Source: Candidatus Micrarchaeota archaeon (GTDB taxonomy: Archaea; Micrarchaeota; Micrarchaeia; Norongarragalinales; Norongarragalinaceae). Taken from it: 64,000 nt of DNA. A program made the translations under genes and the position numbers. Below, one piece after another: positions 2,173 to 44,045 of the stretch (the first letter of the stretch is position 1; the number at the start of each line of letters is the position of its first letter). The DNA lies in contig CAYOZI010000001.1 in assembly GCA_964408425.1 (NCBI GenBank), positions 8,861 to 72,860 of the forward strand. Direction: 5' to 3'. The notes under the pieces were generated by a model. That model was not told the origin of the DNA. It saw only the letters and a program-made list of their open reading frames with translations, and did no database searches.

Positions 2173-2178
2173 TTCAAC
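2087..2178 (-). repeat. ~92-nt exact repeat (signal-peptide coding region plus upstream), copy A; copy B at 7528..7619
   Basis: An identical nucleotide stretch encoding MKGLFFVLGLFFAMGFVFALPVLNVQGRI in two paralogous genes. Confidence 0.8.
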
Positions 2179-2201
2179 GCCCACCCCGCTTTAATGCAAA
2201 C

Positions 2202-3357: not shown

Positions 3358-4287
3358 GTGGGAAACATGGGTTTGAAGGGAAGGGACTTCATTTCAGTAA
3401 ACGATTTCAGCAATTCGGAGATCCAAGCGGTTTTCGACACCGCTTCGGAAATGGAAAAATTCGTGAAAAAAGGAACCGACTCATGCAAGGGAAGGGTTTT
3501 AGCCACCCTCTTTTTCGAGCCTTCCACGCGCACGCAATTCTCTTTCCAAACCGCCATGCTCCGCCTGGGCGGAGGGGCTATAGGGTTTTCGGACACGAGC
3601 GGAACTTCAGTATCCAAGGGGGAAACGCTTCAAGACACGATTCGCATCATAGAAGGATACTCGGACGTAATCGCAATGCGCAGTTCCCAACCCAATTCGC
3701 TTTCTTTTGCTGCGGAATACGCGTCCATTCCGGTCATAAGCGGGGGGGAAGGGAAGGGAGAACATCCCACTCAAACGCTTCTCGATTTGTACACGATAAA
3801 AAAAGAGTTGGGAAGGCTGGACGTGAAGATAGGGTTTTACGGAGATTTGAAGTACGGAAGGACGAACCATTCCTTAATGCTCGGCGCCTCGAGATTCGGG
3901 GCTGATTTTCACTGCATTGCGCCTCAAGAACTGCAAATGCCCGAGGAATACGTGAAGAAAGCAGAGGAAAACGGGGCCAGGGTGGAGTTCGAGGATAGTA
4001 TTGAAAGCGTCCTGCCGGAACTCGACGTTCTGTACGTCTCGCGATTGCAAAAAGAACGTTTGCCTCCTGAAGCGGATTACGAAACGATGAAGAAAGCGTA
4101 TCACGTCGACAATTCCTTGATGGAAAAAATGAAGGAAAACTCGCTGTTGATGCACCCTCTGCCCAGGGTGGGGGAAATAGAAGATTCCGTTGATTCCGAC
4201 CCGAGGGCGGCGTATTTCCGCCAGGCTGCGAACGGAGTGCCGATAAGAATGGCGTTGATAGCTCTTTTGCTGGGAGCGGTGGAATAA
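3358..4287 (+). CDS. pyrB: Aspartate carbamoyltransferase catalytic subunit
   Basis: FFEPSTRT carbamoyl-phosphate motif, HPLPRVGEI motif (ATCase, not OTCase), ~309 aa. GTG at 3358 or ATG at 3367 (the latter has GGTGG 7 nt upstream). Confidence 0.85.
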   Translation: MGNMGLKGRDFISVNDFSNSEIQAVFDTASEMEKFVKKGTDSCKGRVLATLFFEPSTRTQFSFQTAMLRLGGGAIGFSDTSGTSVSKGETLQDTIRIIEGYSDVIAMRSSQPNSLSFAAEYASIPVISGGEGKGEHPTQTLLDLYTIKKELGRLDVKIGFYGDLKYGRTNHSLMLGASRFGADFHCIAPQELQMPEEYVKKAEENGARVEFEDSIESVLPELDVLYVSRLQKERLPPEADYETMKKAYHVDNSLMEKMKENSLLMHPLPRVGEIEDSVDSDPRAAYFRQAANGVPIRMALIALLLGAVE

Positions 4288-4305: not shown

Positions 4306-5193
4306 TCAAACCAGTATTTTCACCGAATCCTTTTCCACGATCACGGTGGATTCCGCCTGCGAAACCAAGCCTTTGTCCTCGTCCAGCAAAACCGAATAAC
4401 CGTGCATTATTCCCTGCTTCTGCAAATCGCGAAGCGTGAATTCGATCATCTTCTCCTTCGCATACCACCGTTTTGCGAAAGGAAGCATCTGCCTTTCCGC
4501 AAAAACCTTTTCCAAAAACGCTCGGCTTGAAGGCATTCTCACGTTCTTAGGAAACAAAAACGAGAAAATCTCTGGCGGTTTGGGGGAATCCACGACGAAA
4601 CCCGCGCCTGTAGAGGCGAAGGGCTCTACTGCGAAAACCTCGCCTTCCTCGAAAACGTGTCCCTCCCCGCCTTTCCCGACATTAGGAACTTCTATCCCCG
4701 CGTGCAAGTCATACGGCTCGAGCAAGTGTCCGCACAGATTCTCGACGGGCTTGAATCCCTTGGAAACGATCGTTTTTTCGATCGTCTCGCCGATTTTCTT
4801 TGCTGAAACGCCGGCTTTCATCACGCTCAATGCATCTTGAAGAGCCTGTTTCGAAGCTTCGACTAGCTTTCCGTTCTCCCCGCTCAAATCAACCGTGAAA
4901 CCCGCGTCGATAATGCAACCCTCAATATGAACGCCGATATCGACTTTCACTACCTCTTTTCCGAAAACCCTTTCCTCGCCAAAGGCGGGAGTGTTGTGCG
5001 CGGCTTCGAAATCGAACGAAATGTTCACGGGAAAGGCGATTTTCCCGCCCGAATCAACGATTTCCTTTTCAATCTCCTCGGCAGCCTTCAAAACGCCTTC
5101 TCCGGTTTTCACCACGCTTGCCGCCGTTTCCTGCGCGGCAGCGTGCACCCTGGCAGCTTGCAGGTAATTCTTCGACTCCTCTTCCGAAACCAT
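4306..5193 (-). CDS. map: Methionine aminopeptidase, archaeal type 2
   Basis: 295 aa, pita-bread fold motifs (..NLCGHLLEPYDLHAG..), the length typical of archaeal MetAP. Confidence 0.8.
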   Translation of the reverse strand: MVSEEESKNYLQAARVHAAAQETAASVVKTGEGVLKAAEEIEKEIVDSGGKIAFPVNISFDFEAAHNTPAFGEERVFGKEVVKVDIGVHIEGCIIDAGFTVDLSGENGKLVEASKQALQDALSVMKAGVSAKKIGETIEKTIVSKGFKPVENLCGHLLEPYDLHAGIEVPNVGKGGEGHVFEEGEVFAVEPFASTGAGFVVDSPKPPEIFSFLFPKNVRMPSSRAFLEKVFAERQMLPFAKRWYAKEKMIEFTLRDLQKQGIMHGYSVLLDEDKGLVSQAESTVIVEKDSVKILV

Positions 5194-5271: not shown

Positions 5272-5718
5272 TCAGCCTATCGAAGAAAGGCATTGTTGCT
5301 TCAATTCTTCAGGCAGCCCGTCGCAAGGAACCGCTTCTGAGGGGGAAAAACCGTCTGAAGCCGCAGGCTGGTTTTCCATAGACTGAAGGCACGCGGTTTT
5401 CAATTCATCCGGCAAACCGTCGCAAGGCTGCGGTTCCGTGGAAGAAGCCGAAGCGGCTTCAACCGAATTCAAACACTCTTGCGTCAATTCTTCCGGCAAG
5501 CCCGAACACGGGGTTTCTTCGTCGGGGTTTAAAGAAGGCGAGGGACTCGCTCCTCCGACTACGTTCACCGCCACGACTCCCGTCGCAGGAGGCTGAGGCG
5601 CGACAGGCACGGGATTCTGGGACGGCAGCTGCAAAACCCAGGAAAAGAAAACCAGAGCCAAAGCCAAGACTCCCAACGCCACAAGCAAAACCGCGTTTTT
5701 ATCCAACTTGAAACCCAT
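5272..5718 (-). CDS. Small secreted/anchored protein with three Cys-bracketed repeats (PC[SD]GLP[ED]ELxxxCL)
   Basis: N-terminal hydrophobic anchor/signal (AVLLVALGVLALALVFFSWVLQL), a Pro-rich linker, and 3 repeats each with two Cys 11 residues apart. It is a paralog of 9088..9558. Confidence 0.65.
   Translation of the reverse strand: MGFKLDKNAVLLVALGVLALALVFFSWVLQLPSQNPVPVAPQPPATGVVAVNVVGGASPSPSLNPDEETPCSGLPEELTQECLNSVEAASASSTEPQPCDGLPDELKTACLQSMENQPAASDGFSPSEAVPCDGLPEELKQQCLSSIG
5286..5370 (-). repeat. ~85-nt identical segment shared with 9102..9187 (3' end of the Cys-repeat genes)
   Basis: Direct sequence comparison: gaaaggcattgttgcttcaattcttcaggcagcccgtcgcaaggaaccgcttctgagggggaaaaaccgtctgaagccgcaggctgg. 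Confidence 0.75.
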
Positions 5719-5734
5719 TTTTCACACCCCTAGT

Positions 5735-7615
5735 TTACACTTTCCCGCACAACGACGTTACGACCCTGCCCATAGTGTTCGGACAATTAATCAGGCCAAT
5801 CGAACCGCCGCACATTTCGTCGGTATAGCTGCATCCTTTCAACACAGGATAATCGCCAGGGCAAGCTGGGGTAACATCCACCAGAGGCCCCACTCCGATG
5901 ACAAAACCGAAGTCCGAACACGTATCGGAGCCAGAACCATCATTGCACCTCGCTATGCAAAGGGGAGGCTTGTCGTAAACATTTTGAAAGTCAAGCACGT
6001 AGAACTGGAGATCATTCCTGTCCACTCCGATGAACTCCCCAATCTGGAAATAATTGAAGGTAACAGGAGAACTGCTTCCGGACCTGGTCTCCAAGAATCT
6101 TGAAACGTACTTCACTGAATAATCCGTCTGGGCTTTGCAATTAGTCCCGTCTTCCAGGCAAACGTCCTTGCCGTTGACAGTCGCGGAAGAACTCCGTACT
6201 GCAAGAGAACCCACTGAAGCGGAACCGCCCGTTCCCGAACCCACGGTCAACGGACCGTTTAAAACGTTCAACCCGTTCGAACCGCCTACGGTCAAACGCC
6301 CGTCCACAGCAGCATCTCCGCTTACGTCCAAGCTATCATCAATATTGACTGCAGAAGCACCTTGAGCGGAAATCAAAGTGTTCAACAAGGTCAACTTCGA
6401 CGCAACGCCGGCAGCGCCGATGGTGATTTCCGGAACGTTTGTGCTAGCCTCTTGCACCTTAAACATCACGGTGGTTCCCGTTTGAACGGTGAAGGGAAGA
6501 TAGCTGTTGAGGAATACGGCCACGCCCTGCTGCCCCCACAGGCTGACGGCATTGGCTTTAGGAAAAGAAGAACCAGGAACGGCCACGTTCGGGTATTTGA
6601 TAGCGTTTGCAACCAATTCCGAACCGGTTCCGCTCAAAACCACGTCCCCGTTGAAAGTGGAAGTTCTCGGCGTTGAAGAAGAGCCGACAGCGAAATTGTT
6701 CAAAACCGCAACTGGATTGTTGACCGTCTGGGTCCCGTAACCGGAAGGCTTGACGACGTAATTCACGTTGTCAACACCCCCTCCGCTTGGACAGCCGGTC
6801 CCGTCTTTCAAGCAAACTTCCTGCGCAACGCCACTGCCTTTCTTCACCACCGCCTTTCCCGATTGCCCCACTTGCAAGGTCAAGTCGTTCGCTCCCGTAG
6901 TGGCCGTAGTGCTTACAGAATTGGTTTTAACGCCGCCGGCGCCCGAAACCGTAAGCCCGCCGCTTCCCGAAACGCTCAAATCATCCCCAATCCTCACAGG
7001 ATTCGCACCCGGACTGTAAATCGACCCGTAAACATTGAGCGCCCCGTAAGCGTTCAAACTAGGCTGGTTTGAATCACCCACAGGCAAATTCAAGTCCCAA
7101 ACGAAAACGTTGTTCCTAAACCAAGAGAACGTGCCATTATTGTAAGGATAGCCGAAAATCGAGTGTCCGTTCAAAACCGAAATCGGCGAGTACTGATTGT
7201 AATAATAATTCGCCCAGAAATCGCCCTTGAAATCGCCAACCACGAGTTTTGACGTGGCATTCGCATTAAGCGGAACCACCGTTCCACCCTGCACTTGAGT
7301 CGGGTAAAACGCCTGGCATGAAACCAGCGTTACGCTGCCGTAAACCAAGCGCAAGTAGTAAGGAGTGTTGGAAGCAAGCAATCCGGACGGGTAATTCAAA
7401 GTAACGTCGAAAATGCCGTTAGTCAGAGAAGTGTCCTGCCCGCTGAACAAAGCTGTTCCAGAACAAGTTGAAGACGCGAAAACCGACGCGGTGACGCTCC
7501 CGGAAGAAACCGGATTCCCCCCGTTCAAAATCCTTCCTTGAACGTTCAAAACCGGCAGGGCGAAAACGAAACCCATCGCGAAAAACAAGCCCAAAACGAA
7601 AAACAAGCCCTTCAT
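5735..7615 (-). CDS. Large secreted surface protein (paralog 1), same signal peptide as 274..2172
   Basis: 626 aa. The MKGLFFVLGLFFAMGFVFALPVLNVQGRI start is identical, the YYLRLVY motif and the C-terminal DVCLEDGTNC block are shared, and the middle is rich in G/S/T/N/V. Confidence 0.75.
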   Translation of the reverse strand: MKGLFFVLGLFFAMGFVFALPVLNVQGRILNGGNPVSSGSVTASVFASSTCSGTALFSGQDTSLTNGIFDVTLNYPSGLLASNTPYYLRLVYGSVTLVSCQAFYPTQVQGGTVVPLNANATSKLVVGDFKGDFWANYYYNQYSPISVLNGHSIFGYPYNNGTFSWFRNNVFVWDLNLPVGDSNQPSLNAYGALNVYGSIYSPGANPVRIGDDLSVSGSGGLTVSGAGGVKTNSVSTTATTGANDLTLQVGQSGKAVVKKGSGVAQEVCLKDGTGCPSGGGVDNVNYVVKPSGYGTQTVNNPVAVLNNFAVGSSSTPRTSTFNGDVVLSGTGSELVANAIKYPNVAVPGSSFPKANAVSLWGQQGVAVFLNSYLPFTVQTGTTVMFKVQEASTNVPEITIGAAGVASKLTLLNTLISAQGASAVNIDDSLDVSGDAAVDGRLTVGGSNGLNVLNGPLTVGSGTGGSASVGSLAVRSSSATVNGKDVCLEDGTNCKAQTDYSVKYVSRFLETRSGSSSPVTFNYFQIGEFIGVDRNDLQFYVLDFQNVYDKPPLCIARCNDGSGSDTCSDFGFVIGVGPLVDVTPACPGDYPVLKGCSYTDEMCGGSIGLINCPNTMGRVVTSLCGKV

Positions 7616-7619
7616 TTCA
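7528..7619 (-). repeat. ~92-nt exact repeat, copy B (see 2087..2178)
   Basis: Identical to copy A by direct comparison of the two stretches. Confidence 0.8.
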
Positions 7620-8984
7620 ACTTCGCCCCCTGCCCCTGACGCGCATGAACAACAACGACATCAAAACCAACGCCAAAACCGCAATCAAATCCGTTTCCGG
7701 CAAAGCCTTCCTTTCCGTAACCAAAATCAAAGCCGGGTTTTCCGCATCTTCATACTTAGTCCCGCCGAAAACCACCCACGCTTCGGCCCTCAAGTTTTTC
7801 CTGTCGAAAACCTCTCCCTCCGCCAAATCGATTTTCGCCTGGAAAACGCCGGGCTTGACAAACTCAATCGGAAGAGTAACGACCTGGTCTCCGCTGTCGG
7901 CGTCAAAAACGCTCAACGCTATGCCTGGATCCGAGACTACAGCCAAACCAGTTTCAGGGTCGTTCAGCAAAATCGTTATCACTGCCTTTTCCTCGAAATC
8001 CGGAATTCCCGTTCCAGAAACCACCTTCCCCCCTTCTATCCTCAAAATATTCCCTTCCCCGCCACCTCCTGTCGGAACGCACTGGCAGGCTTGGCAGGCG
8101 AACCCCTCGCTGCAAGTCAAACCCCTTTCCCCGCACTCTTCCCCGAAATCCGTAGCGTCATTCCCATCACAGAACGAACCTCCTTGTGAAATGACGAATT
8201 GCGTGGGGTTGGGAGTGCACGTTATGAGATTCCCTCCGACAGTTCCGTTAGCCCGGATTAATTTCGTTCCTACAGTCGTGTAAGAACAGGTTCTCGTGAA
8301 AACCAAGCCGTTTTGCGTGAAAGACTGCCTGTTGCCCGTATCGCAATAACCTTGGAAATTAGTCACAGGCCCTTGGGAAAACGTTACAGTAACGTCGGTC
8401 GTTTCAGGGGAAGGCGGAATTGCGCCTGAAGAAGGGTTGATGGAAATCGAGCACGTCGGAAGGCTGACGACTTCAATGGGCTTGAACGGGCAGTTGAACG
8501 CAGGGTTGGAGAAATTGGCGTAAATTGCTTTCGACCCGACGCTCGTTCCGGTGAACTGGGTCGGGTTGGCGTTGTTCGGGTTGAAAGAAACGCCGGTCGC
8601 ATTCGCGCTCCAGGATATAGTCATGACGCCCGTAGGGCAGGAGGATGGAGAGCCGTTGTTAGTGCATTGAGCGGTGAGGGCAACTGGAACGTTTACAGTC
8701 ACCGTATCCGGCCCTGAAACTCCCGTGCAATTCCAACCCGAAGGAACGGTGGTTGCGGCAGGGCATATTCCCCCGTAACACGGGCCCACTTCTGCAGCGT
8801 AACTCCCGCTTGAAAAACTTCCCACTGGAGGGGTTGTGATGACGTATTGCACTTCGTAAGAGCCGGAAGTTTGCTGCAAGCCGGAAGTTCCAATGTGGTA
8901 GTTGGCGGTGTAAGAGCCGGAAGAAGCTTCGAAAGCGAAAGCGAAAACCGAAAACAAAAGCAATGCCGCCAAGACTTTCCGCAA
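7617..8984 (-). CDS. Secreted Cys-rich protein with a C-terminal LPETD motif + TM helix + Arg-rich tail (sortase/archaeosortase-substrate-like tripartite signal)
   Basis: 455 aa; signal peptide; Cys-rich middle; GGGGEG linker; conserved ~150-aa C-terminal domain ending ..RKALPETDLIAVLALVLMSLLFMRVRGRGRS. The stop codon abuts the start of 5735..7615. Confidence 0.7.
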   Translation of the reverse strand: MRKVLAALLLFSVFAFAFEASSGSYTANYHIGTSGLQQTSGSYEVQYVITTPPVGSFSSGSYAAEVGPCYGGICPAATTVPSGWNCTGVSGPDTVTVNVPVALTAQCTNNGSPSSCPTGVMTISWSANATGVSFNPNNANPTQFTGTSVGSKAIYANFSNPAFNCPFKPIEVVSLPTCSISINPSSGAIPPSPETTDVTVTFSQGPVTNFQGYCDTGNRQSFTQNGLVFTRTCSYTTVGTKLIRANGTVGGNLITCTPNPTQFVISQGGSFCDGNDATDFGEECGERGLTCSEGFACQACQCVPTGGGGEGNILRIEGGKVVSGTGIPDFEEKAVITILLNDPETGLAVVSDPGIALSVFDADSGDQVVTLPIEFVKPGVFQAKIDLAEGEVFDRKNLRAEAWVVFGGTKYEDAENPALILVTERKALPETDLIAVLALVLMSLLFMRVRGRGRS

Positions 8985-9087
8985 CCCGACCCAGCCCCCT
9001 GTTCAAGAAACAAATTCTAAACGCAAGAACGATATTTAAACGTTCTAGAATTCACGAGTAAAAACGTCTTTCAAAAAAAGAAGGAAT

Positions 9088-9558
9088 TCAACCTAAGGAG
9101 GAAAGGCATTGTTGCTTCAATTCTTCAGGCAGCCCGTCGCAAGGAACCGCTTCTGAGGGGGAAAAACCGTCTGAAGCCGCAGGCTGGACGTCCTGCAAGC
9201 ACTGCGCTTTCAGCCCTTCTGGCACGCCTTCGCACGGGGAAGAAGGTTCCAAAAGCGAAGGCGGAACTTCGTTTGAAGAGAAAGGCTGAACCGATTGCAG
9301 ACAATCTTGCTTCAAACCACTACCGTCAGGCAAGCCCGAACACGGTTCAACGGAAGTCTCGTCCAAAACAGGCGCGGCTTCCTGGGTAGGCGGGGAAACC
9401 ACGTTTACGGCAACCACTCCCGTCGCAGGAGGCTGAGGCGCGACAGGCGCGGGATTCTGGGACGGCAGCTGCAAAACCCAGCTGAAAAAAACCAGCGCCA
9501 ACGCCAGAACCGCCCAAGCGGCAAGCATTACAATCCTTTGGTCCAAAATCCCTTTCAT
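9088..9558 (-). CDS. Small Cys-repeat secreted protein (paralog 2)
   Basis: Start taken at MKGILDQ (the ORF track begins 8 codons earlier and would overlap the upstream gene). The N-terminal anchor and the C-terminal PCDGLPEELKQQCLSSLG are nearly identical to 5272..5718, including ~85 nt of identical DNA. Confidence 0.65.
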   Translation of the reverse strand: MKGILDQRIVMLAAWAVLALALVFFSWVLQLPSQNPAPVAPQPPATGVVAVNVVSPPTQEAAPVLDETSVEPCSGLPDGSGLKQDCLQSVQPFSSNEVPPSLLEPSSPCEGVPEGLKAQCLQDVQPAASDGFSPSEAVPCDGLPEELKQQCLSSLG

Positions 9559-9560
9559 TT

Positions 9561-10676
9561 TCAACACGCTTCCTGAACGCACAATTGAATTCCGTTCACT
9601 TTCAAGCCTCTGGGAACGAACGGTAAAACACAGTTTCCGCTTGACAACTGCGCATCAACCAAAACGCATTTTCCGGTTAGCTTAGAGAAAATGTTTTTGT
9701 TCACCACGAGATTGTCGTCAACGATAACGTCGTTTCCTGAACTTGAAATCGGGCTGGTGCCTTCAAGCACGATGCTGCCGTAAACGAGCAAGTTCGAAGG
9801 CCTTTTTTCACCTCCGTAGTTTGAAGAGCCGAAGGCAACAGTCGGGCTGAGGAACCTTGCATAAAGGCTGTAGAAAGTCGGCAGGCTGTACTTTCCGAAA
9901 AGAAGGTGGGTGAAAGTCTGGATTTTTTGCTCGTAGAAATAATCCTGCTGGTAGCCGGTCAGCGCGCCTCCAATCACGAAATAATTCGGGGGAAAAGCAG
10001 AAAACAGGGTGTTCACAGGCAACCGAACGCTGTAAGCCTGGCTGAAATCCGCACTCTCTCCGGCGTAAACGTCTTTAGCCGACACTACGCCCTTGGTCAA
10101 AACATTATCAGCATAAACGTTGTTCAGCCAAGCGCTTCCGCCCACGGCTTGCGAATAGTAAAACCTCTTGCGTTCCTTAAGCAATTCCTTCTCACCGCTT
10201 GAATCCACGTAAACCAGGCGCAGGTAATAAGCCGTGTTTATCCTCAGCAAAGGAGGGGCTACCGGAGTGGGCGAAGGGCACGGATAGCCTGCAACGCAAG
10301 CGTAAACTCGGTTAACTTGGGTTTTGGAGAAAGTCAAGTCGAAAACCGAGTCTGCATTCAACTCGTCCGTCTGCGTGAGCAACGGAGTTCCGCCCGTTGA
10401 AGCAGTGTAAACCTCGCCCCTCACGCTTCCCGAAACCGCCTTTCCCAGCGAGTCTTTAATCTTTCCCTGCACGTTCAACACAGGGTATGAAGAGCCTACA
10501 ATTGCGGTAGGAGTCTCGTAAGTATTCAAGTCGAAATCCGTTCTAATGTCCACGGAAACCGAACCATCCGATGGAGCGGTAATGCCAGTAACGTCAATAG
10601 GATCGCTGATTTCCTGCGCGAAAACCAAGCTTGAAACAAACAAAACCGCTAAAACCGAAGCTAAAAATTTTTTCAT
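9561..10676 (-). CDS. Secreted surface protein (shorter paralog of the large surface proteins)
   Basis: Signal peptide MKKFLASVLAVLFVSSLVFA; it shares the PVLNVQGKI and YYLRLVY motifs with the 274.. and 5735.. proteins. Confidence 0.6.
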   Translation of the reverse strand: MKKFLASVLAVLFVSSLVFAQEISDPIDVTGITAPSDGSVSVDIRTDFDLNTYETPTAIVGSSYPVLNVQGKIKDSLGKAVSGSVRGEVYTASTGGTPLLTQTDELNADSVFDLTFSKTQVNRVYACVAGYPCPSPTPVAPPLLRINTAYYLRLVYVDSSGEKELLKERKRFYYSQAVGGSAWLNNVYADNVLTKGVVSAKDVYAGESADFSQAYSVRLPVNTLFSAFPPNYFVIGGALTGYQQDYFYEQKIQTFTHLLFGKYSLPTFYSLYARFLSPTVAFGSSNYGGEKRPSNLLVYGSIVLEGTSPISSSGNDVIVDDNLVVNKNIFSKLTGKCVLVDAQLSSGNCVLPFVPRGLKVNGIQLCVQEAC

Positions 10677-10706
10677 TTCCCAAACCACCCCGTTAATGCA
10701 AAAAAA

Positions 10707-11951
10707 TTATTTCCTTTTCCTCTCAGCTTTTGTTTTGCTTAAGCGAAGGTACAGCAACGCGGTGAAAACCAACGCCAAAACCGCAATCAAATCCGTTTCC
10801 GGCAAAGCCTTCCTTTCCGTAACCAAAAGCAACGCCTTGTCCTCGACATCAGCGTACTCGACGCCGTCAACTTCAACCCACGCTTCAACCCTCAACGTTT
10901 TCTTTTCAAACTCCGCATTGGATAACGAAAGCGTCGCTTCAAAAACACCCGGCTTGCCAGTGTAAGAAACGGACACGGGAATTTCCTCGTCGCTCCCGTC
11001 ATCGAAAACCTTCACGTTCAAGCCGGGGTCGCTAGTCAAAGCCAACCCGGTTTTCGGGTCGTTCAACAAAATAATTACTTTCGCGTTTTCCGAAAAGTCT
11101 TCAGCCGAAGAGCCGGAAAAAACCTTTCCCGCTTCAATCCTCAAAACGCTTCCCACTCTCGAAGAATCGACGCAAGCGCTGCAAGCCACGCAAACCTGGC
11201 TTAAAACGCAGCCGTCATTCAAATCGCAAGTTTCTCCGAACTCGCGAACTCCGTTCCCGCAAACCGCTCCGCCCCCGCCCCCATCGTCAGGAGGAAGGAT
11301 GTCTTCCCTGGCCCTGAAAACCGGGTAGGAATTGGGTTGCGCAGGCGGCGAACGGGCAAAACACTCCACGAACTCTCCGTTTACCACTCCGCTGGAAATT
11401 ACCGTTGAAGTGAAAGGCGGGCTTCCTTGATAAAAGCAAACTCCCTCGAACTCCAAGCCAGTAGGGTCCGGAGAAAACTGGGTGGTGATTTCGCCGTTGT
11501 ACCCGCAATCGGCTTCGACCGAATCCTCTTCAGGAACGCCGGAAAACGACAGGGTCACCGCAACGTAAGTGGAACTAGAACCCGAATCCGGTTCAAGGAA
11601 AGCAATGCAGGATTTGCCCCCGCCCGGAGGGGTTACGGTAGGAGACGGAATTGGGGTGGGAGTGGCGGAAGGCGTGGGCGACGGGGTTGCGGTCGCCGCC
11701 GCTGAAACGAAAGGACAGGTTTGCCCGTAACACGGGCCCAAGTCCGTGTTCAACTCGCCGTCGTTCGACCCTATCGGCGGCAGGACTATCGAATATTCGA
11801 CGGAATAACCGTCTATTGCAGAAGGTCCTTCGAAACCCGCTGGTCCGATGTGAAAGCTCGTGTAAAAATCGTTGAAATTCGAATCGTAAGAAAAAGCCAG
11901 AGATGAAAAAACAATCAGGAAAAAGAAAAATGCGCTTGGTTTTCCCTTCAA
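10707..11951 (-). CDS. Secreted protein with a C-terminal LPETD + TM + Lys/Arg tail (paralog of 7617..8984)
   Basis: 414 aa; signal peptide; Pro/Thr/Ser-rich linker; GPCYGQTCP and Cys-rich region. The C-terminal domain and the ..RKALPETDLIAVLALVFTALLYLRLSKTKAERKRK are conserved, with ~65 nt of DNA identical to the 7617.. copy. Confidence 0.7.
   Translation of the reverse strand: MKGKPSAFFFFLIVFSSLAFSYDSNFNDFYTSFHIGPAGFEGPSAIDGYSVEYSIVLPPIGSNDGELNTDLGPCYGQTCPFVSAAATATPSPTPSATPTPIPSPTVTPPGGGKSCIAFLEPDSGSSSTYVAVTLSFSGVPEEDSVEADCGYNGEITTQFSPDPTGLEFEGVCFYQGSPPFTSTVISSGVVNGEFVECFARSPPAQPNSYPVFRAREDILPPDDGGGGGAVCGNGVREFGETCDLNDGCVLSQVCVACSACVDSSRVGSVLRIEAGKVFSGSSAEDFSENAKVIILLNDPKTGLALTSDPGLNVKVFDDGSDEEIPVSVSYTGKPGVFEATLSLSNAEFEKKTLRVEAWVEVDGVEYADVEDKALLLVTERKALPETDLIAVLALVFTALLYLRLSKTKAERKRK
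10765..10829 (-). repeat. ~65-nt identical segment shared with 7663..7727 (coding for the ..ALPETDLIAVLALV.. anchor)
   Basis: Direct comparison: aaaaccaacgccaaaaccgcaatcaaatccgtttccggcaaagccttcctttccgtaaccaaaa in both LPETD genes. Confidence 0.75.
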
Positions 11952-12003: not shown

Positions 12004-12885
12004 TTATTTAAACGTTTTTTCCGAAAGCAACGGATTCGCTAAAGGCGAGACGACCGGCGACGGTTGAGCAAAAGGAGAAGGGGAAAGGGAGGGCAGGCTT
12101 GAAGACCGCATAGGAATTTCGGCAATTTTCATTACGCTCGGAACTTGAAAAGTTTGCTTTGATAAAGAAAAAGCGCCGATGTCGGTTGAAACTAGGGAGA
12201 AAGGCGACGAGGTATTCCCAGAAGGAGGCAAAACAGGCTGCACTGCAACCAAAACCTGCGAAAACTGCAAGCCGGGCAAGGAAAAAGGCCGAATCGAAGG
12301 AGTTTCAACTGCAGAACCGTACGGCGGCAAAAACCCCCCGCTTTCGAGCCTGCAACGCAATTTCACGTAGTTGTCCAACTGCCTTCGGTAGATTACCTTG
12401 TTTCTGGAGTCTTTCACAACCACCTCCCGCACGCCGCACGAGAAAGGAGCGAAAAGAACCGCGTTCGGAACGGTTACGCTTGATTCTCGTCCAACGCAGC
12501 CGCCACTGCCGCCGTCAAGAACTCCGCTCGCGCTTCCGAAACACTCGGGAGAGTCGGACAAAACCGTTTTGGTGAAAGAAAATTTGGCGGAAAAAACCGG
12601 TTGTTTCCTCGAATTCCTCAATTCCATCGTGAAATCCCCCGAACCCCCCTGTTTTTGCAAGAACGAGTCGTACAACACCACCCGGTCGACCGAAACCCGC
12701 CCTCCCTCGTTGGAAAACCTGAATGCGAAAACGGGCTTGAGGAAATCTTTCGCAACCGTGAAAAGCCGCTCGCCGCCAGCCTTGCTCAAATCACCTTCCG
12801 AACTTCCGCCGCCCGCCATAGAAAAGCCGCTTGCGCTTGCGCCCAGGATTACGGCGAAAAACAATGCAAACAGCAGTTTATTCAA
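12004..12885 (-). CDS. Secreted hypothetical protein
   Basis: Signal peptide MNKLLFALFFAVILGASASG, Ser/Pro-rich C-terminus; overlaps the upstream metalloprotease gene by 4 nt (operon-like). Confidence 0.5.
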   Translation of the reverse strand: MNKLLFALFFAVILGASASGFSMAGGGSSEGDLSKAGGERLFTVAKDFLKPVFAFRFSNEGGRVSVDRVVLYDSFLQKQGGSGDFTMELRNSRKQPVFSAKFSFTKTVLSDSPECFGSASGVLDGGSGGCVGRESSVTVPNAVLFAPFSCGVREVVVKDSRNKVIYRRQLDNYVKLRCRLESGGFLPPYGSAVETPSIRPFSLPGLQFSQVLVAVQPVLPPSGNTSSPFSLVSTDIGAFSLSKQTFQVPSVMKIAEIPMRSSSLPSLSPSPFAQPSPVVSPLANPLLSEKTFK

Positions 12886-15881
12886 GAAAATCCCTCCAAC
12901 GACTGGTTCAACGACCGTTGGTTCACTTTCCCGAAAGCATCACGCCAAGCGTAATCGCTATCCGTGACAAACCCGGGAGACCAAAACAATACAGGCGAAA
13001 AATCCAGGTAGTAATGGAACAAGACGAACGAAAACCAGTCCCCGCCGCTGCTCATCATCGACCTCACCGTCGGCCTCGCCCCGCTCTCCCCGTCCGTACA
13101 ACCCGGAGGAGTGTAAGACAAGATGCGCGTGTAGTTAACGCAACTCACGTCCCCGTAAATGCAATGCCAGTAATCATCATCAAGAGGCTGTTCGGAACTC
13201 TCGCTATGCAAATAATCCAATTCGGGCTCGCTCAGGATTTTCAACGCGCCCTTGCCCCCGCCAACCAAATCCCCCCACCATTCCATTGCTGTTGAAGAAT
13301 TCGGAGCGCAGCTCGGCATTCCCTCCGTGTTCCCAGGCCACTCGTCTTTCAACCAGCTTAAAGCATGCCCGAACTCGTGCACAACCGCGGCCGTTTCCCA
13401 CCGGTCGTACTCGAACCTAGTCGTAACCATGAAAAACATCGGATAAGCCATCCCCCCGTTTCCGCCAATGTTGTTTGTCGTCAAAACCCCGCGCAAGTCC
13501 GCAGGACAGGACAATACAGCCGCAGTCCAATCGCCCGAACCACCGCTGCAAAACCGCCAGTTCGCCTCGCAGTAATCACCCATGCGGCTGAAGCGCAAAA
13601 AGTTTATCTTCTGCTCTTGGGAGTGCAACGGTTCTATCAACGAAAGCCCTGTGAGAGAAAAGTTGCTGTCGTTGTCGAAACTCGCTTGCCGGTAGTGCCA
13701 CTCCTGCTCGTCGTAAGAATAATTCATCCCGTCCCCGAACAACGCCACGTCCAGCTTAGTCTCTGGGTTGCCGCTGTAATCCCACACGATGCAAGCGTCG
13801 GTATACAAAACAGGCGTGCCAGCCGCGGTGAGGTTGTTGTTCGAATAATCCGGCTCGAAACCCTGCTGGAACGGGTTTGCATTGGCGAAAACCGAGAAGT
13901 CGCTCTCGCCGAAAAACTCTTCAGGAGGAGTCCAGTTGAAAACAACCGTCGAGTTGCCCAAAGCGTTCCACGCCCCCTCGCCCGGCTGGATTTCAAAAGT
14001 GCCGAGCGTCACCGGCTCGGTCCAAAAACCGCTTTCGTTCGCAGGCGTGTAATACTCGAAATGCGTTTCGTTCAAAACCACGCTGATGACCGAAAAAGTC
14101 CCGTTCGGAAAAGGCGCGTTCCCCAAGTTTTTCACTACGACGACAACCTGCCCCGCGTGATTAATGTCAGGCTGCGTCGGGAAGCTTATTTCGTCTACCG
14201 CCAAGTCCGGAACGTTAACAAAAACATTTTGAGAGCGGTTGTTGTTTCCCTCGCTTTCCTCCAAACCGGCAATGTTCGGCTCGTCGGAAACGAACGCCTT
14301 GAGCGAATGGCTTCCGCCCACGCTCGGCGTCCAGTCGAACTGCACCAGGGCAGAAGCGCTTCCGTTCCATAACCCCTCGCTCTTGCTAACGTTCTTGATT
14401 CCTATGAAACGCGCGTCGCTCTGGTTGAGAGTGAAAATATCTCGCGTCAAAACCACGAAAATGTTCGTGGTGTTGGAAGGAAACGGCGCGTTGCGCAAGT
14501 TCGCTATCGTAATGTTGATCGTGGAAGGCTGCAATATTCGCAGAGTTGGGGTGGAAATGCTTTGAACCGCCAAATCCGGCCTATCCACGTTCACGCTCAA
14601 GTTCAAAACGTTGTTCGACTCGCTCTCCTCCACGCCGTTCGCATCCGGAACGTCGTCAACTTCCAAGGTCAAATTGCGCAGCCCCCCGCTTTGCGGAGTC
14701 CAGTCGAAAACAAAACTGTTTTTGCCCCAAGCGAGCCAAACGCCAGCGTTTTTGGAAACGTTCACTTCCTCTACCACGGTGTTCGCGTCTTTCAGCCTAA
14801 CGAAAACATTCCGAGTAGAAGCCGGAATGGAAGCGTTGTTGGCGTTAGAAACGTTGACTTCCACCCGGACTTTCTTCCAAATCGACGGGCTTTGCAAAAC
14901 CCGGATGCTCTGCGCGACCAAATCCGGCTTTGTGATTCCAACCGAAACGTTCATCGCTGCAATATTGTTGTTCTCGCTAACCTCCCTGCCGTAAGGCTCT
15001 CCGAATTCCGGATAATCATCCGCATAAACGTAAACCGGATAATTGCCGCTCTTCATTGGAATCCAGTCGAAAGAAACCCTGCTTTCCCCGTTCGCATTCC
15101 ACGCTCCAGAGTTTTTCGGAATCAAAACCATTCTAGCGCAGCCGTTCGTTTGCATGCACGATTGGAATTCAGCCTGGTCCTGCTCGTCCCAGAACACCCC
15201 GTCGCCGTCAAACCAAACGAAAATCTTTTCAGCAGGATTGCGGCTTGAATCGAAAACGCCGAACCCCACGTTTTTCGAATTACGCACGGTAACATTCACC
15301 CTCTCAAGCTGAAACGCCTCGAAAGGAAGATAGCCTACAGCAAGCCCGCTCAAAGTCAAATCCGGCCTTGCCCCGACGAAAGCCTTCCAATTCACCAAAA
15401 CCCCGTACTCATCCTCGACATTAACAATCCCGTCCTTGTTCCCATCCAACAAGGAACAGGAAACCGTTTCCCCACCAACAACGCAGTTTTCCGAAGAGTT
15501 TTTCCCCGCATTCCCTTCAACCGCAACCAAATCCGGATTGCTCACGTAAAAATCGTCGTTGTAATCGTAAAAAGAAACCGGGCTGCACGAAGAGCCGTAG
15601 TCATACCCCAACGCTGCGTTATCCCTCTCGTCCACAACCCCGTCGCGATTCGCGTCGAACGCTTTGCAAACGATTCCCGTATTCAAATTCCAAGAGCAAG
15701 AGTTTTGCGAAGAGCTTTTCCCGAAATTCTCCCTCAACGGACCCTGGTCCGCATCATTCACAATCCCGTCGTAATTGACGTCCGAATAGCAGGAAGAAGA
15801 ATAGGCGGACGCGAATAGGGAAAAGCCCGCAACTAGGAGCACGAACGCTATGGCAACAAAGGCAAAAATTCGGCGTTTCAT
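12882..15881 (-). CDS. Large secreted zinc metalloprotease (HEFGH) with 3 N-terminal dockerin/EF-hand-like Ca-binding repeats and ~4 CARDB-like repeats
   Basis: ~1000 aa; signal peptide MKRRIFAFVAIAFVLLVAG (ORF track starts 9 codons earlier); DVNYDGIVNDAD, DANRDGVVDERD and DGNKDGIVNVED repeats; four PDL(V/A/T)..S..-type repeats; HExxH at ~13365..13379. Confidence 0.7.
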   Translation of the reverse strand: MKRRIFAFVAIAFVLLVAGFSLFASAYSSSCYSDVNYDGIVNDADQGPLRENFGKSSSQNSCSWNLNTGIVCKAFDANRDGVVDERDNAALGYDYGSSCSPVSFYDYNDDFYVSNPDLVAVEGNAGKNSSENCVVGGETVSCSLLDGNKDGIVNVEDEYGVLVNWKAFVGARPDLTLSGLAVGYLPFEAFQLERVNVTVRNSKNVGFGVFDSSRNPAEKIFVWFDGDGVFWDEQDQAEFQSCMQTNGCARMVLIPKNSGAWNANGESRVSFDWIPMKSGNYPVYVYADDYPEFGEPYGREVSENNNIAAMNVSVGITKPDLVAQSIRVLQSPSIWKKVRVEVNVSNANNASIPASTRNVFVRLKDANTVVEEVNVSKNAGVWLAWGKNSFVFDWTPQSGGLRNLTLEVDDVPDANGVEESESNNVLNLSVNVDRPDLAVQSISTPTLRILQPSTINITIANLRNAPFPSNTTNIFVVLTRDIFTLNQSDARFIGIKNVSKSEGLWNGSASALVQFDWTPSVGGSHSLKAFVSDEPNIAGLEESEGNNNRSQNVFVNVPDLAVDEISFPTQPDINHAGQVVVVVKNLGNAPFPNGTFSVISVVLNETHFEYYTPANESGFWTEPVTLGTFEIQPGEGAWNALGNSTVVFNWTPPEEFFGESDFSVFANANPFQQGFEPDYSNNNLTAAGTPVLYTDACIVWDYSGNPETKLDVALFGDGMNYSYDEQEWHYRQASFDNDSNFSLTGLSLIEPLHSQEQKINFLRFSRMGDYCEANWRFCSGGSGDWTAAVLSCPADLRGVLTTNNIGGNGGMAYPMFFMVTTRFEYDRWETAAVVHEFGHALSWLKDEWPGNTEGMPSCAPNSSTAMEWWGDLVGGGKGALKILSEPELDYLHSESSEQPLDDDYWHCIYGDVSCVNYTRILSYTPPGCTDGESGARPTVRSMMSSGGDWFSFVLFHYYLDFSPVLFWSPGFVTDSDYAWRDAFGKVNQRSLNQSLEGFS

Positions 15882-15996
15882 TGCGTTAAAATATGACGAA
15901 AACAACATTAAAAACTATTATTTTAACCACTAAACAGTTTATAACAAAACGAGTTTTTGATTGCTCGAACGCTACAAGTGGCGTTTTGAAATAAGG

Positions 15997-18456
15997 CTAA
16001 CCCCACGAACCTAATCCCGTCTGCTTTCCCTTGTTTTTCAACGCGTCCTCGTCGAAACCCAGTGACCCCAGGATCCTCAAAACGGCAGGCAAAACCTGGT
16101 GGTTCACGTAATAATCCGCATCGTAATCCTTAGCCAGTTCAACAACCCTCGACTGCAAATAAATCTTCTGCTTGCTCTTCGAAGTTTCCTTCCCTTCCGT
16201 CGTAATGACGAATCCGATTACGGAATTCTCCGGAATGCGCATTCCCTGTTTTATAGCGTTTTGCACAGCCCCCAATTCCGGCGACTGCACTGCATAAGAA
16301 GAAGCGCTTTTCCTCAATTGCGTGTAAATAACGCAATCCTCGAGAGGGATTTTCCCGGCCTTCAAATCCTCGACCGTTTTCATCACCAACGCCGCGGCTT
16401 TTTCCACATCCCCTTCCTTCAACAGTATTTCCAGAACTTTTCTCTGCGTTTCCTTCGCGATCTTGCTCCAATCCCTTCTCACCAATTCAAAGCCCCTTAT
16501 CTTGATTTTTCCCTTCTCGTCTATCAAAGCATACTTCTTTTTCGCGCCCTGCTCCTCCGCTCCCTTGACTTTCCTGGAAACGAATATTCCCCGCGGATAA
16601 AACCCTTCCAACTCCAGCTGCATTGCCTCGGGAAGGCCGGCGTTAATCTTTTTTTGAAAAGCAACGACCTTTTCCTTGCTCGAGTAAAGCAAAAACGCGG
16701 AATCCGTATCCGCGTACAAAGGCTTCAACCCGAATTCCTCCGCCTTCTGGAGCGTTTGCTGTATATAGTGCCTCCCCCAAGCGGTAGTCGCCTCCCCTCC
16801 CTCTCGCGTATACCACCGTGAACGCGCGTAGAGAAGATATCCGTAAGTGGAATTCGCCAGGATTTTCAACGACCACTGCCTTGCATCGAGAATCTTGTAC
16901 TCCTCGGACTTTTCATCCACGCTTTTCATCTGTTTTTTTATCTTCGCCCTTTCCTTCAAAACCTCCTCCAGCATTTCCGGAATGATTCCCTTCCGTTTTT
17001 TGCAGAAGTGATGGCCTTGAGGAGAAACGAAACCGTCTCCCTTGCAACAATCGCAATTGAGCGTCGTAGAGTCGATGTTATGGGAAATGATTATGGACGG
17101 ATACAGGGACCGGAAATCGAGGACTGCGATATTTTCGTAAACCCCGGCATCCGGCGTTTTGACGAACGCCCCTTCCACCATCCCCTGCCTCGCGTCGATA
17201 TCTTCGGAAGAAGGCTTGTTGGGAGCCAATTCGTTTCTTTCAAACGCCTTGCTTAAAAGAAAAGTCTCGACCAATTGCGATGAAGTGGCGCGCGAAACTT
17301 CGATCAAAGGCATTTTGACGAGTTTTCCCAATTCCAGCTGCAGCGGAAGAAAGCGTTTAGCCAAGCCCAGGCAGGCGACCGCATCAACAAGGCAGTATTC
17401 CGCAAGGAAATCCCGCTCTTTTTGAGAGCCGGAATCCCAAATCTTGTGGATGTCCTGTTTTTTCACGCCCAGCTTCTTTCCCCCGAGAACCGTGGCGTAA
17501 ACCTCTTCGAGAGTCAAACGCGAAACCTTGATCGTTCCCGTGAAATTCAGGAACGAAGCGACGGGAAAAACATCGTAGTGGATCCTTCCGGAAATCTCGG
17601 AAATGTTCCTCAAGCCTATCCTTCTTGTTTTGACAGGGTTTTTGTCCCTGCCCAAGCGGAAGTCGGCACTAAGCTTTTTCGCCCTGGTTTGAAGATAAGG
17701 CAAATCGAACTGGTCCCCGTTGTAAGTGCATATAACGTCAACGTGTTTTTCCCTCAGCAAATCGCAATACGCTTCGATCATTTTCCTTTCCGAATCGAAG
17801 CTCTTAACGAATTTTTCCGAAAAGTGCTTGTCGTAAGAATAAACGCCCTTCGCCTCGCCGTCGAACCCGATCATCAAAGCAGGATCTTTCTCCGCGTTAG
17901 GGATGGTTTCCGGATTGTAAGTTTCAATATCCAGCGAAAGAAAACGCAGCTTTGGAATCTCGTCGGAATCCACAGTCTTTATTTTTCTGATTGAAAGCCC
18001 CGCGTGCTCCACTTCCTGCAAGGCGTTGGGCTTCAGGCTCTTATCCAGCAGATAACGCCGCGTGTAGGGAATGTCGAATTCGAAAGGCTCGCCGTATTTC
18101 TTCGCCCCTTCCCTCAGCGAAGGGACGTCCGACGCTTTAAAGCCAAATACTTTCAGCAAAACCACGTTTTTGTTTCGGAAGGAAAGCGAGGTTTCCTCAA
18201 CCCTCTTCACCCTGCAGTCTCCGAATTTCGACGAAACAACCATGCTCTCTAGCTTTCCCTTAGCCTCCTTCAGGCTCTCCTTGGGTTTCAGCAAAAAGTA
18301 GGGCTCGAAATTATCATACAGCCGGATGGTTTTTCCGGAAAGCGTTTTGAGCGTCAGGCGTATGGCGCTTTCCTTGTTTTTCAAAACGTGGTCTACATCC
18401 AGCAGAAACGCTTTCACCACGCCGTTCTTGTTCTTTGCCTTCACGATCAAACCCAC
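15997..18456 (-). CDS. polB: DNA polymerase, family B
   Basis: 819 aa; exonuclease and polymerase motifs including YGDTDS-like PLYADTDS and YNGDQFDLPYL; no intein. Confidence 0.9.
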   Translation of the reverse strand: MGLIVKAKNKNGVVKAFLLDVDHVLKNKESAIRLTLKTLSGKTIRLYDNFEPYFLLKPKESLKEAKGKLESMVVSSKFGDCRVKRVEETSLSFRNKNVVLLKVFGFKASDVPSLREGAKKYGEPFEFDIPYTRRYLLDKSLKPNALQEVEHAGLSIRKIKTVDSDEIPKLRFLSLDIETYNPETIPNAEKDPALMIGFDGEAKGVYSYDKHFSEKFVKSFDSERKMIEAYCDLLREKHVDVICTYNGDQFDLPYLQTRAKKLSADFRLGRDKNPVKTRRIGLRNISEISGRIHYDVFPVASFLNFTGTIKVSRLTLEEVYATVLGGKKLGVKKQDIHKIWDSGSQKERDFLAEYCLVDAVACLGLAKRFLPLQLELGKLVKMPLIEVSRATSSQLVETFLLSKAFERNELAPNKPSSEDIDARQGMVEGAFVKTPDAGVYENIAVLDFRSLYPSIIISHNIDSTTLNCDCCKGDGFVSPQGHHFCKKRKGIIPEMLEEVLKERAKIKKQMKSVDEKSEEYKILDARQWSLKILANSTYGYLLYARSRWYTREGGEATTAWGRHYIQQTLQKAEEFGLKPLYADTDSAFLLYSSKEKVVAFQKKINAGLPEAMQLELEGFYPRGIFVSRKVKGAEEQGAKKKYALIDEKGKIKIRGFELVRRDWSKIAKETQRKVLEILLKEGDVEKAAALVMKTVEDLKAGKIPLEDCVIYTQLRKSASSYAVQSPELGAVQNAIKQGMRIPENSVIGFVITTEGKETSKSKQKIYLQSRVVELAKDYDADYYVNHQVLPAVLRILGSLGFDEDALKNKGKQTGLGSWG

Positions 18457-19683: not shown

Positions 19684-19797
19684 GTGCGGCGACCGGGAAT
19701 CGAACCCGGGCTACCAGCTTTCTGCTCTTTCTTTGGTCAAGCTTTCTTTCGCAAAGAAAGGTTGGAAGGCTGGAATCATACCATTAGACCATCGCCG
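19684..19797 (-). tRNA. tRNA-Gly (anticodon UCC) with a ~43-nt intron at the canonical 37/38 position
   Basis: Acceptor GCGGCGA/TCGCCGC, anticodon stem CCAGC/GCTGG, loop CTTCCA|intron|A, T-arm CCGGG-TTCGATT-CCCGG. The intron (~19719..19761) carries the hairpin TTTCTTTGCGAAAGAAA. Confidence 0.75.
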
Positions 19798-19815
19798 CGC
19801 GAATAATACTGGAGC

Positions 19816-20083: not shown

Positions 20084-21247
20084 TTACAATTTATGGTTGG
20101 TTATGCTTAAAAACGCTTTAAGATTTTCAGGATCATCGCTTATCCAGGCTGGAATAGCATCGGTTGAATTTCTCGAAGGAAAACCGTTCGCTTTAAGCCA
20201 CCGTCCAACAGCCACGCAGGAAACAAAACATTGGTAACTCTTTAGACTCTTTTTCCTGGCGTAAGGAACGGGCAAATTGAATTTTAGCAACACTATTCGC
20301 GCAAAATCCAGGATCAATTCTGTCGAGGAGGAAATGATGTAAAACTGCTTCAGGTTTTTGGATAAGCCGCCATATCTAAGCAGATAAGCGAAAAGCTTTG
20401 CTAGATCGACATCAAGTGAGTTGGGAAGGACAGCCCTTCGCTTGTCGTACAGGAACTCGAGGGCGTTTTTGTCAATCCAAAACGCGTTATCCCAAGCCTG
20501 AACCTTCCGCTCAGCCACCAAAGCGGCTTTTTCCAAAACAAGGTTTTTTCTATTATCAAGCCCAAACCGTATTTCTTTTTGAAACAATGAATTCGAACGA
20601 GTACGTACACCGAATATCATAGATTTGGTCCGATGCCCGTCTTTCCTGAGGTTGGCGTTTTGAATAATGACGTTGGAAGTTTTAATCCCAAAATTCAACA
20701 GCATTTCCTTCAGATCGTTTATGAACGAAATCCCATCATCCAGAAGCAGTTCGTCCTTGTTTAGGTGGAAAGAAACAAGGTATGAATTGAAAGAAGTGGA
20801 TTTGCTAATCCAACCCTCGCACTGAAACGCAATTGAAAGGTAAGCCTTGGAAAAAACGCGGTTTGTTTTTATCCACGCTGGAACCCTAAAAGGCACGAGC
20901 ATCTTGTCGCCTTTCGGAACTCCGGCTTCAAAAAGAAGCTTAGCTACTTTTGAACTATAAAACCTGCACTTATAGCTAAAACCAAAACCAGTTCCCTGTT
21001 CATAGTGGGGTTTCAAACCGAATTTGCTTACAACGATTTTTTCAAAGTCTTTAAGAAAAACAAAGTTTGACGAAGACAGGTAAAAACGACTCAAATTCTT
21101 TCCAAGATGGCCGTCGAACGTCAGGTAACTAACGAGTTTAGCCAAATCCTCGTCTAAAACTAGAGTGTCGGCTGTCATGCGTTCTACCTGCGGGTTAATG
21201 CAAACACTCGCAAGTAAACAGAATTTAAAAACTTGGGCAGACACCAC
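20084..21247 (-). CDS. Double-motif LAGLIDADG-like homing-endonuclease-like protein, free-standing
   Basis: 387 aa with a clear internal duplication: DLAKLVSYLTFDGHLGKNLSRFYLSSS.. and DLAKLFAYLLRYGGLSKNLKQFYIISS... The first motif keeps the acidic residue; the second is degenerate. The stop codon lies 2 nt from the tRNA-Pro 5' end. The likely true start is MTADTL at 21178. Confidence 0.5.
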   Translation of the reverse strand: MVSAQVFKFCLLASVCINPQVERMTADTLVLDEDLAKLVSYLTFDGHLGKNLSRFYLSSSNFVFLKDFEKIVVSKFGLKPHYEQGTGFGFSYKCRFYSSKVAKLLFEAGVPKGDKMLVPFRVPAWIKTNRVFSKAYLSIAFQCEGWISKSTSFNSYLVSFHLNKDELLLDDGISFINDLKEMLLNFGIKTSNVIIQNANLRKDGHRTKSMIFGVRTRSNSLFQKEIRFGLDNRKNLVLEKAALVAERKVQAWDNAFWIDKNALEFLYDKRRAVLPNSLDVDLAKLFAYLLRYGGLSKNLKQFYIISSSTELILDFARIVLLKFNLPVPYARKKSLKSYQCFVSCVAVGRWLKANGFPSRNSTDAIPAWISDDPENLKAFLSITNHKL

Positions 21248-43990: not shown

Positions 43991-44045
43991 GAAAACATCA
44001 CCGTTTGAAAAGCTAAAAGCAGAATGAAGAATTTAATGTTTGAGT

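Follow-up and report, generated by a model that had tools for sequence, protein, structure and literature searches.

We analyzed a gene on the minus strand of a 64-kb stretch of DNA (64,000 nucleotides, hereafter "the window") from a groundwater DPANN archaeon and found that its product, listed as a "hypothetical protein" in the NCBI annotation, is likely a multidomain, acidic zinc endopeptidase that is exported and probably N-glycosylated, and in which dockerin-like modules and CARDB repeats precede a catalytic domain of peptidase family M64 (igalysin). The protein adds a new, divergent member to a known enzyme family, and its architecture is plausible; it constitutes no new kind of system and reveals no new mechanism. 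The gene, its catalytic domain and the elements within that domain, numbered in amino acids (aa) of the protein, lie at these positions:

12882..15908, minus strand: protease gene, encoding a predicted secreted multidomain metalloprotease of 1008 aa, with the stop codon TGA at 12882..12884
12885..13808, minus strand: M64/igalysin-like metzincin catalytic domain, aa 701-1008, supported by Pfam, a PDB profile search, alignments, and AlphaFold2 (AF2) and Foldseek
13338..13379, minus strand: zinc motif HEFGHALSWLKDEW, aa 844-857, with H844 and H848 as ligands, E845 as general base, D855 as third ligand, E856 as the family Glu, and W857
13104..13241, minus strand: aa 890-935, a ~45-aa insert that contains C916 and C923 and separates the zinc motif from the Met-turn, helical in the AF2 model with a pLDDT (predicted local distance difference test) of about 73-89
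13050..13061, minus strand: Met-turn S950-M951-M952-S953, with M952 at the invariant Met position

The catalytic domain is most likely a divergent M64 peptidase, as judged from its sequence and from a predicted fold. With the window sequence alone, a phmmer search against PDB gave collinear alignments to the M64 structures 4DF9 and 3P1V in two segments, one being the N-terminal "SGNxxxxxDVA" strand and the other the zinc motif. When aa 680-1008 were searched exhaustively with phmmer against 1.84 billion representatives, only 51 proteins were recovered at E ≤ 1e-3 (best 8e-19, 32% identity), and eight of the ten top relatives that were scanned pass the Pfam Peptidase_M64 cut-off, with 26-91 bits. 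When a profile with the window domain as its first row was compared with PDB, it matched 3P1V at 3e-25, 4DF9 at 1e-24 and the IgA protease of Thomasclavelia ramosa (IgAse) at 5e-15. The AF2 model of the domain, built from a 30-sequence alignment that replaced a poor earlier model from 11 sequences (pLDDT 58), has a pLDDT of 76.7 and a predicted template modeling score (pTM) of 0.81; Foldseek placed M64 structures at all of ranks 1-17 with this model (best E 2e-9, TM-score about 0.5), and adamalysin, ADAM33, snapalysin and astacin-type enzymes came next. An earlier sequence-only reading of this DNA had left the MEROPS family of the protease to be assigned, and these searches point to M64, in the metzincin clan. 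Among other peptidase families, snapalysin, serralysin and myroilysin came up in the PDB profile search only at E of at least 0.008, all after M64, and were rejected. Homologue searches that use a word index, whether run with the whole protein, with its C-terminal domain or with the profile of alignment A1, yielded nothing beyond the protein itself or a single M64 protein, and NCBIfam gave no match for the protease or its neighbors.

M64 peptidases are defined by the motif HExxHxxxGxxD, in which the Asp is the third zinc ligand, by a family-specific Glu with a nearby Tyr, by a Met-turn, and by a structural zinc site (Glu+Cys3) composed of a Glu, the Met-turn Cys and two Cys of the C-terminal helix (PMC12237041, PMC12402451). 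In the window protein, HEFGH occupies aa 844-848 (13365..13379), exactly where the sequence-only reading had placed it, and H844, E845, H848 and D855 are in register with H311, E312, H315 and D322 of Bacteroides fragilis BF3526. D855, which aligns with the zinc-binding residues D322 of BF3526 and D550 of IgAse (PMC12402451; PMC12237041), provides the HExxH region with a third zinc ligand, and a Met-turn is also present: M952, whose counterpart in IgAse lies in the Met-turn C606-I-M608-R (PMC12237041), aligns with a Met that is invariant in all 10 homologues of alignment A1 and nearly invariant in alignment A9. H844, E845, H848, D855, E856, M952, C867 and C937 are invariant or nearly so in the alignments, and ten natural variants in the 90% identity cluster leave all motif residues unchanged. 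On the strength of its residues, the M64 domain is probably active.

The N-terminal part of the protein consists of two tandem modules that precede the CARDB region:

15573..15791, minus strand: dockerin-like module A, aa 40-112, with Ca loops at aa 43-54 and 85-96 and a Cys-containing linker between them
15369..15572, minus strand: dockerin-like module B, aa 113-180, which internally duplicates module A; its loop at aa 115-126 is degenerate, the one at aa 155-166 canonical

The sequence-only reading had counted three DxNxDGxVNxxD repeats here. Three canonical loops are indeed present (DVNYDGIVNDAD at aa 43, DANRDGVVDERD at aa 85 and DGNKDGIVNVED at aa 155), but the total has to be raised to four, given a degenerate loop absent from that description (DYNDDFYVSNPD at aa 115), and the loops are arranged in two modules that share the order loop, helix, Cys-containing linker, loop, helix. 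The second half of module B is kept in a relative, P0002. Module A alone scores 21.7 bits with Pfam Dockerin_1 (E 2.4e-4; cut-off 22.9), and module B alone gives no match. With a profile of three modules (A, B and their equivalent in the relative P0007), the top 11 PDB matches are all dockerins, the best being 2Y3N_B at 8.2e-8, and calmodulin-type EF-hands appear only at E of at least 0.045. Since dockerin structures are far ahead of EF-hands in this search, the modules appear to be dockerin-like, as had been proposed, rather than generic EF-hands.

Between these modules and the catalytic domain, four repeats open with (R/K/V)PDL at aa 182, 328, 444 and 567:

14931..15368, minus strand: CARDB-like repeat 1, aa 181-326, with an insert of ~30 aa; 15 bits alone
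14583..14930, minus strand: CARDB repeat 2, aa 327-442; 22 bits alone
14214..14582, minus strand: CARDB repeat 3, aa 443-565; 21.2 bits alone
13809..14213, minus strand: CARDB repeat 4, aa 566-700; 20.1 bits alone

Pfam CARDB matches the whole protease with 46.4 bits (E 5e-12, in three stretches; cut-off 22.7); each single repeat, at 15-22 bits, falls slightly below the cut-off, and only their sum passes it. A profile of seven repeats, four from the window and three from P0002, had as its sole PDB matches 3IDU and 2KL6, at 2e-7, both structures of a CARDB domain from Pyrococcus furiosus. The suggestion that the four PDL repeats are CARDB-like is thus borne out by both searches. Apart from the loop count and the proposed cohesin partner (see below), the sequence-only description is supported throughout.

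The features that bear on export begin with the N-terminus:

15804..15908, minus strand: signal peptide, aa 1-35, judged by eye, with a KRR n-region, a hydrophobic core and a likely cleavage site ASA|Y

The protein has neither a lipobox nor a C-terminal anchor. It contains 26 N-x-S/T sequons, mostly in the CARDB region, compared with 11.9 +/- 3.1 in shuffled sequences, and it is strongly acidic (124 D+E vs 58 K+R). Such a sequon excess and acidity fit a glycosylated extracellular archaeal protein, and the sequence suggests that the protease is probably exported and N-glycosylated.

Based on these features, we infer the following course of events, in which export and glycosylation, the binding of Ca2+, the enzymatic activity, its substrates and any tethering are all predictions. 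Export by the Sec pathway and removal of the signal peptide would yield a mature protein of three parts. The two tandem dockerin-like modules, with their pairs of EF-hand-type Ca2+ loops, would adopt a Ca2+-dependent fold and probably offer a protein-docking surface, and the four CARDB beta-sandwich domains would form a glycosylated stalk or adhesion region. The C-terminal M64 metzincin domain would cleave extracellular polypeptides, with zinc held by H844, H848 and D855, water activated by E845, and M952 forming the Met-turn beneath the site. Lacking an anchor, the protease may be released, or it may be kept at the cell surface via its dockerin/CARDB part. Its most likely role would be external protein breakdown, of environmental proteins or of a partner-cell surface, for peptide scavenging or cell-cell interaction; IgA is implausible as a substrate in groundwater.

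The architecture recurs in few relatives. P0002 lies on an archaeal JGI contig together with an S-layer-type gene and AsnC-type regulators, and its N-terminus is lost at the contig end; the order of what remains is that of the window protein (last dockerin loop, CARDB repeats, M64 domain), with 40% identity in the CARDB part and 28% over a longer alignment that includes the M64 domain. Domain order and downstream gene (see below) are therefore conserved in this one distant relative. P0007, on an archaeal contig with genes for TBP, aIF5A and L15e, has a dockerin-like module, an M64 domain, a CARDB-like segment and a C-terminal transmembrane anchor, and dockerin-like loops together with an M64 domain also occur in P0035 and in a few metagenomic or genomic M64 open reading frames (ORFs). 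M64-like genes were found in other archaea (Methanosarcinales and metagenome-assembled genomes of Nanoarchaeota among them) and in many Bacteroidales; a genome scan returned mostly Bacteroidales M64 and a few archaeal ones. Metagenome scans found nothing with patterns from the window and P0002, and only distant generic M64 genes with a pattern from alignment A9.

The protease gene stands, as the sequence-only reading had it, at the head of a co-oriented array: the secreted-looking ORFs from 15908 down to 274 are all on the minus strand. Two genes break into the array, one for a methionine aminopeptidase (4306..5193) and, on the plus strand, a carbamoyltransferase-like one (3358..4287; OTCace by Pfam). 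Downstream of the protease, a three-gene cassette is present twice within 5272..11951, on the minus strand:

10707..11951, 9561..10688 and 9088..9582, minus strand: cassette copy 1, encoding proteins of 414 aa (LPETD tail), 375 aa, and 164 aa (transmembrane segment, Cys-rich)
7617..8984, 5735..7615 and 5272..5718, minus strand: cassette copy 2, encoding proteins of 455 aa (LPETD tail), 626 aa and 148 aa

The identities between cassette paralogues are 40%, and 42% and 25%, and a third "LNVQGRI" paralogue is located at 274..2184 on the minus strand. Neither the cassette proteins nor this third paralogue have a match in Pfam, NCBIfam or PDB. The 414- and 455-aa proteins share one and the same C-terminal signal, ...VTERKALPETDLIAVLALV, after which come a hydrophobic helix and a basic tail (10707..10850; 7617..7745), an arrangement that in sequence resembles a tripartite sorting signal of the sortase or exosortase type. 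These LPETD tails match none of the NCBIfam sorting-signal models, and no sortase or archaeosortase was found among the membrane proteins of the window.

This neighborhood raises the possibility of cellulosome-style tethering, in which the dockerin-like modules would bind a cohesin-like domain on a neighbor, for example one of the LPETD proteins (10707..11951 and 7617..8984), and thereby assemble a surface protease complex. The modules are closer to true dockerins than to generic EF-hands, the protease is anchorless and two neighbors carry LPETD, a transmembrane segment and a basic tail, and the genes are all co-oriented and closely spaced. However, the cohesin-like partner that the sequence-only reading placed possibly among the neighboring surface proteins was not found in these 64 kb of the genome: Pfam Cohesin matched none of the 9 neighboring proteins and none of 10 other membrane or secreted ORFs of the window, and no cohesin was among the PDB-profile matches of the LPETD paralogues, the LNVQG paralogues or the protein encoded immediately downstream of the protease. 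Extra contig flanks added no relevant genes. Many non-cellulosomal dockerins reportedly occur without a recognizable cohesin. Overall, we regard tethering of this kind as unlikely.

The gene next to the protease is tightly linked to it:

12004..12885, minus strand: downstream gene, translationally coupled to the protease gene and encoding 293 aa with a signal-peptide-like N-terminus, a domain of ~130 aa and a Pro/Ser-rich tail

The protease stop codon TGA overlaps the TTG start (12885..12883) of this ORF as TTGA, in agreement with the 4-nt overlap with a secreted protein described in the sequence-only reading. The gene directly downstream of P0002 encodes a weak but significant homologue (E 6e-7), indicating that the two-gene unit is conserved. 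Beyond this pair, small genes for secreted or transmembrane proteins with a similar strand pattern are tightly coupled downstream of the M64-like genes P0004 and P0003 as well, and on unrelated contigs (one near a bacterial LigA) small secreted or transmembrane proteins follow M64-like genes by 0-4 nt (L056:8052-8702 and L058:7283-7960). The small proteins of L056 and L058 have a strand pattern in common with the window's downstream ORF, which hints at a wider pairing of protease and small-partner genes.

By analogy, the downstream protein may be a dedicated partner of the catalytic domain, acting as a lid, inhibitor or chaperone encoded in trans, such that protease and regulator form a two-gene unit. 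The conservation of the pair beside P0002 and the coupled genes beside P0004 and P0003 are in line with this, as is the finding that the N-terminal beta-sandwich domain of BF3526 restricts access to the active site (PMC12402451). Against it, the downstream proteins resemble one another only marginally (E 0.05 or none) except for the window protein vs L030, and the window protein itself has no Pfam or PDB match. We considered and rejected the specific version in which the partner is an M64 N-terminal domain encoded in trans: hhalign against 19 M64 N-terminal domains gave 18.6% probability (P 0.0013), and an unrelated CARDB alignment was matched equally well by the partner profile (P 0.0016), so that the signal is that of a generic beta-sandwich and the idea of a trans-encoded lid is unsupported. 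A regulatory role for the partner thus appears improbable.

Several observations weigh against the reading of the protein as a zinc endopeptidase of family M64 with docking modules. The window sequence scores 20.9 bits with Pfam PF09471 Peptidase_M64 (E 2.3e-4), below the cut-off of 26, and the assignment therefore depends on transitive evidence, on profiles and on a predicted fold whose TM-score is moderate (about 0.5). The motif Gly, which ends the active-site helix at position 8 or 9, is absent, with S851/W852 in its place. The conserved Tyr of the D-E-Y "tyrosine switch" is replaced by W857 (13338..13340), with E856 kept. The Cys3+Glu structural zinc site of IgAse and BF3526 is missing, the Met-turn beginning with S950 and the C-terminal helix GKVNQRSL being free of Cys; all environmental homologues in the alignment likewise lack the structural-zinc Cys. 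In addition, the Dockerin_1 score of module A is just under the Pfam cut-off, and the analysis identified neither a cohesin nor an anchor partner, and likewise no substrate and no peptide transporter.

Loss of the motif Gly together with W857 could alter or weaken catalysis, and taken further these changes could point to a pseudo-protease, in which the metzincin domain would have lost efficient catalysis and would act as a binding module on a dockerin/CARDB adhesin. The changes from Gly to Trp and from the switch Tyr to Trp, the lack of a structural zinc, the sub-threshold Pfam score and the adhesion or docking character of CARDB and dockerin modules all fit such a protein, and none of about 100 homologues shares W857 (the 51 relatives from phmmer and the 50 M64 ORFs of fetched loci have Tyr, rarely His), with Tyr retained even in the closest relative, P0002. 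In contrast, all four catalytic or ligand residues and the Met-turn are intact and do not vary among the cluster variants, and the Tyr of IgAse, although close to the zinc, is not one of its ligands (PMC12237041). The motif Gly is also missing in several homologues, including some that keep everything else (P0041, HEFGHALFALRDEY; also P0031, HEWGHALFDLRDEY), which indicates that this Gly is not strict in the wider M64 family. We therefore consider a pseudo-protease very unlikely and favor an active M64 endopeptidase. Least probable of all is a dedicated archaeal surface protease machine made of the protease, its coupled small partner and the LPETD surface proteins, in which the dockerin-like modules would sit on a receptor unrelated to cohesin and access to the M64 site would be controlled in trans by the partner, much as BF3526 does with its fused N-terminal domain, for attacking the protein envelope of other cells.

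The start of the protease gene may be either the codon at 15908 or an in-frame ATG at 15881 (M10, MKRRIF...), which gives 999 aa with a textbook signal peptide (MKRRIF...LFASA|Y) and is used, by other gene callers, in the 999-aa database versions of the protein. The ORF of ~1000 aa claimed in the sequence-only reading thus corresponds to 1008 aa, or to 999 aa from the start at 15881 that it had adopted. A family B DNA polymerase gene (15997..18456) is separated from the protease gene by an 88-bp gap, which contains TATA-like elements rich in A/T, among them:

15938..15944, minus strand: TATA-like A/T-rich element TTATAAA, between PolB and protease genes, read directly from the sequence

From its position, TTATAAA may possibly be the protease gene's own promoter. 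The host belongs to Candidatus Norongarragalinales, an order of Micrarchaeia, in the DPANN group, from groundwater: an identical protein is found on a groundwater metagenome contig of PRJNA268031, the cluster members that are identical or at least 90% identical, and their neighbors, are named Candidatus Norongarragalinales archaeon, and the neighboring genes include archaeal informational genes; the family B polymerase gene and the intron-bearing tRNAs of the window (see below) also support this placement. The metabolism of Norongarragalinales has been argued to be unusually complete, and the order may be less host-dependent (PMC12892359, 2025).

Elsewhere in the window, Rfam finds five tRNAs, two of them intron-bearing. 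The long tRNA matches at 19685..19798 (114 nt) and 44885..45023 (139 nt), both on the minus strand, are detected by Rfam and missed by ARAGORN, and presumably are the ones that bear introns. Close to an intron-bearing tRNA is a free-standing ORF of 387 aa (20084..21247, minus strand) with a marginal match to the homing-endonuclease-like LAGLIDADG_3 (22.7 bits vs a cut-off of 22.5). At 43409..44699 (minus strand), two adjoining paralogous membrane proteins each contain a Ferric_reduct-like transmembrane domain.

The structural and biochemical characterization of M64/igalysin peptidases dates only from 2025 and is limited to two enzymes, both from gut bacteria. The window protease indicates that the family extends into DPANN archaea in a divergent form, without the structural zinc, with an extra insert and with Trp for the switch Tyr, and that this form carries dockerin-like and CARDB modules as fusion partners, next to a conserved downstream gene with which it is paired. 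A "hypothetical protein" hereby becomes a testable extracellular protease, and a candidate is added to the short list of surface factors for peptide acquisition or cell interaction in small-genome archaea.

The MEROPS M64/igalysin members with which we compared the protein are the Thomasclavelia ramosa IgA protease (IgAse/ThomasA; PDB 9QA6, 9I4Z, 9QDH, 9EKK), Bacteroides fragilis BF3526 (4DF9, 9QDI) and Bacteroides ovatus BACOVA_00663 (3P1V). It resembles them in the extra residue before the Asp ligand (HExxHxxxxxxD-E), the family Glu, the Met-turn, and the collinear N-terminal strand motif and C-terminal helix, and its predicted fold matches M64 first; like IgAse, it is predicted to be a secreted multidomain protein. 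It differs from them in its archaeal (DPANN) host, which is no gut bacterium, in the absence of the motif Gly and the change from Tyr to Trp, in having two invariant Cys (C867, C937) in place of the Cys3+Glu structural zinc site, and in the insert of ~45 aa before the Met-turn, common only to the window protein, P0002, P0004 and P0007, and a second insert after it. The BF3526-type N-terminal beta-sandwich, the C-type lectin or wrapping domains and the LPXTG-type anchor are all lacking, and the catalytic domain is C-terminal.

With type I dockerins (PF00404; 2Y3N_B, 2MTE, 1DAQ) and with non-cellulosomal dockerin-like modules of archaea and bacteria, the N-terminal modules share paired 12-residue Ca loops of the form DxNxDGxVNxxD, a short helix after each loop, which in the window protein ends in FGK or NWK, and the two-segment internal symmetry; fusion to an extracellular enzyme is a further likeness. 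They depart from these in the tandem N-terminal arrangement of two modules, the longer Cys-containing linker between loops, one degenerate loop (Gly to Phe) and the Pfam score just below cut-off, as well as in having no cohesin nearby and in belonging to a protease and not to a glycoside hydrolase. Finally, the central repeats agree with CARDB (PF07705) in their PDL start, in the W-x-P and E-x-N-N motifs and in their beta-sandwich-sized units of ~115-145 aa, and differ from it by the inserts in repeats 1 and 4.

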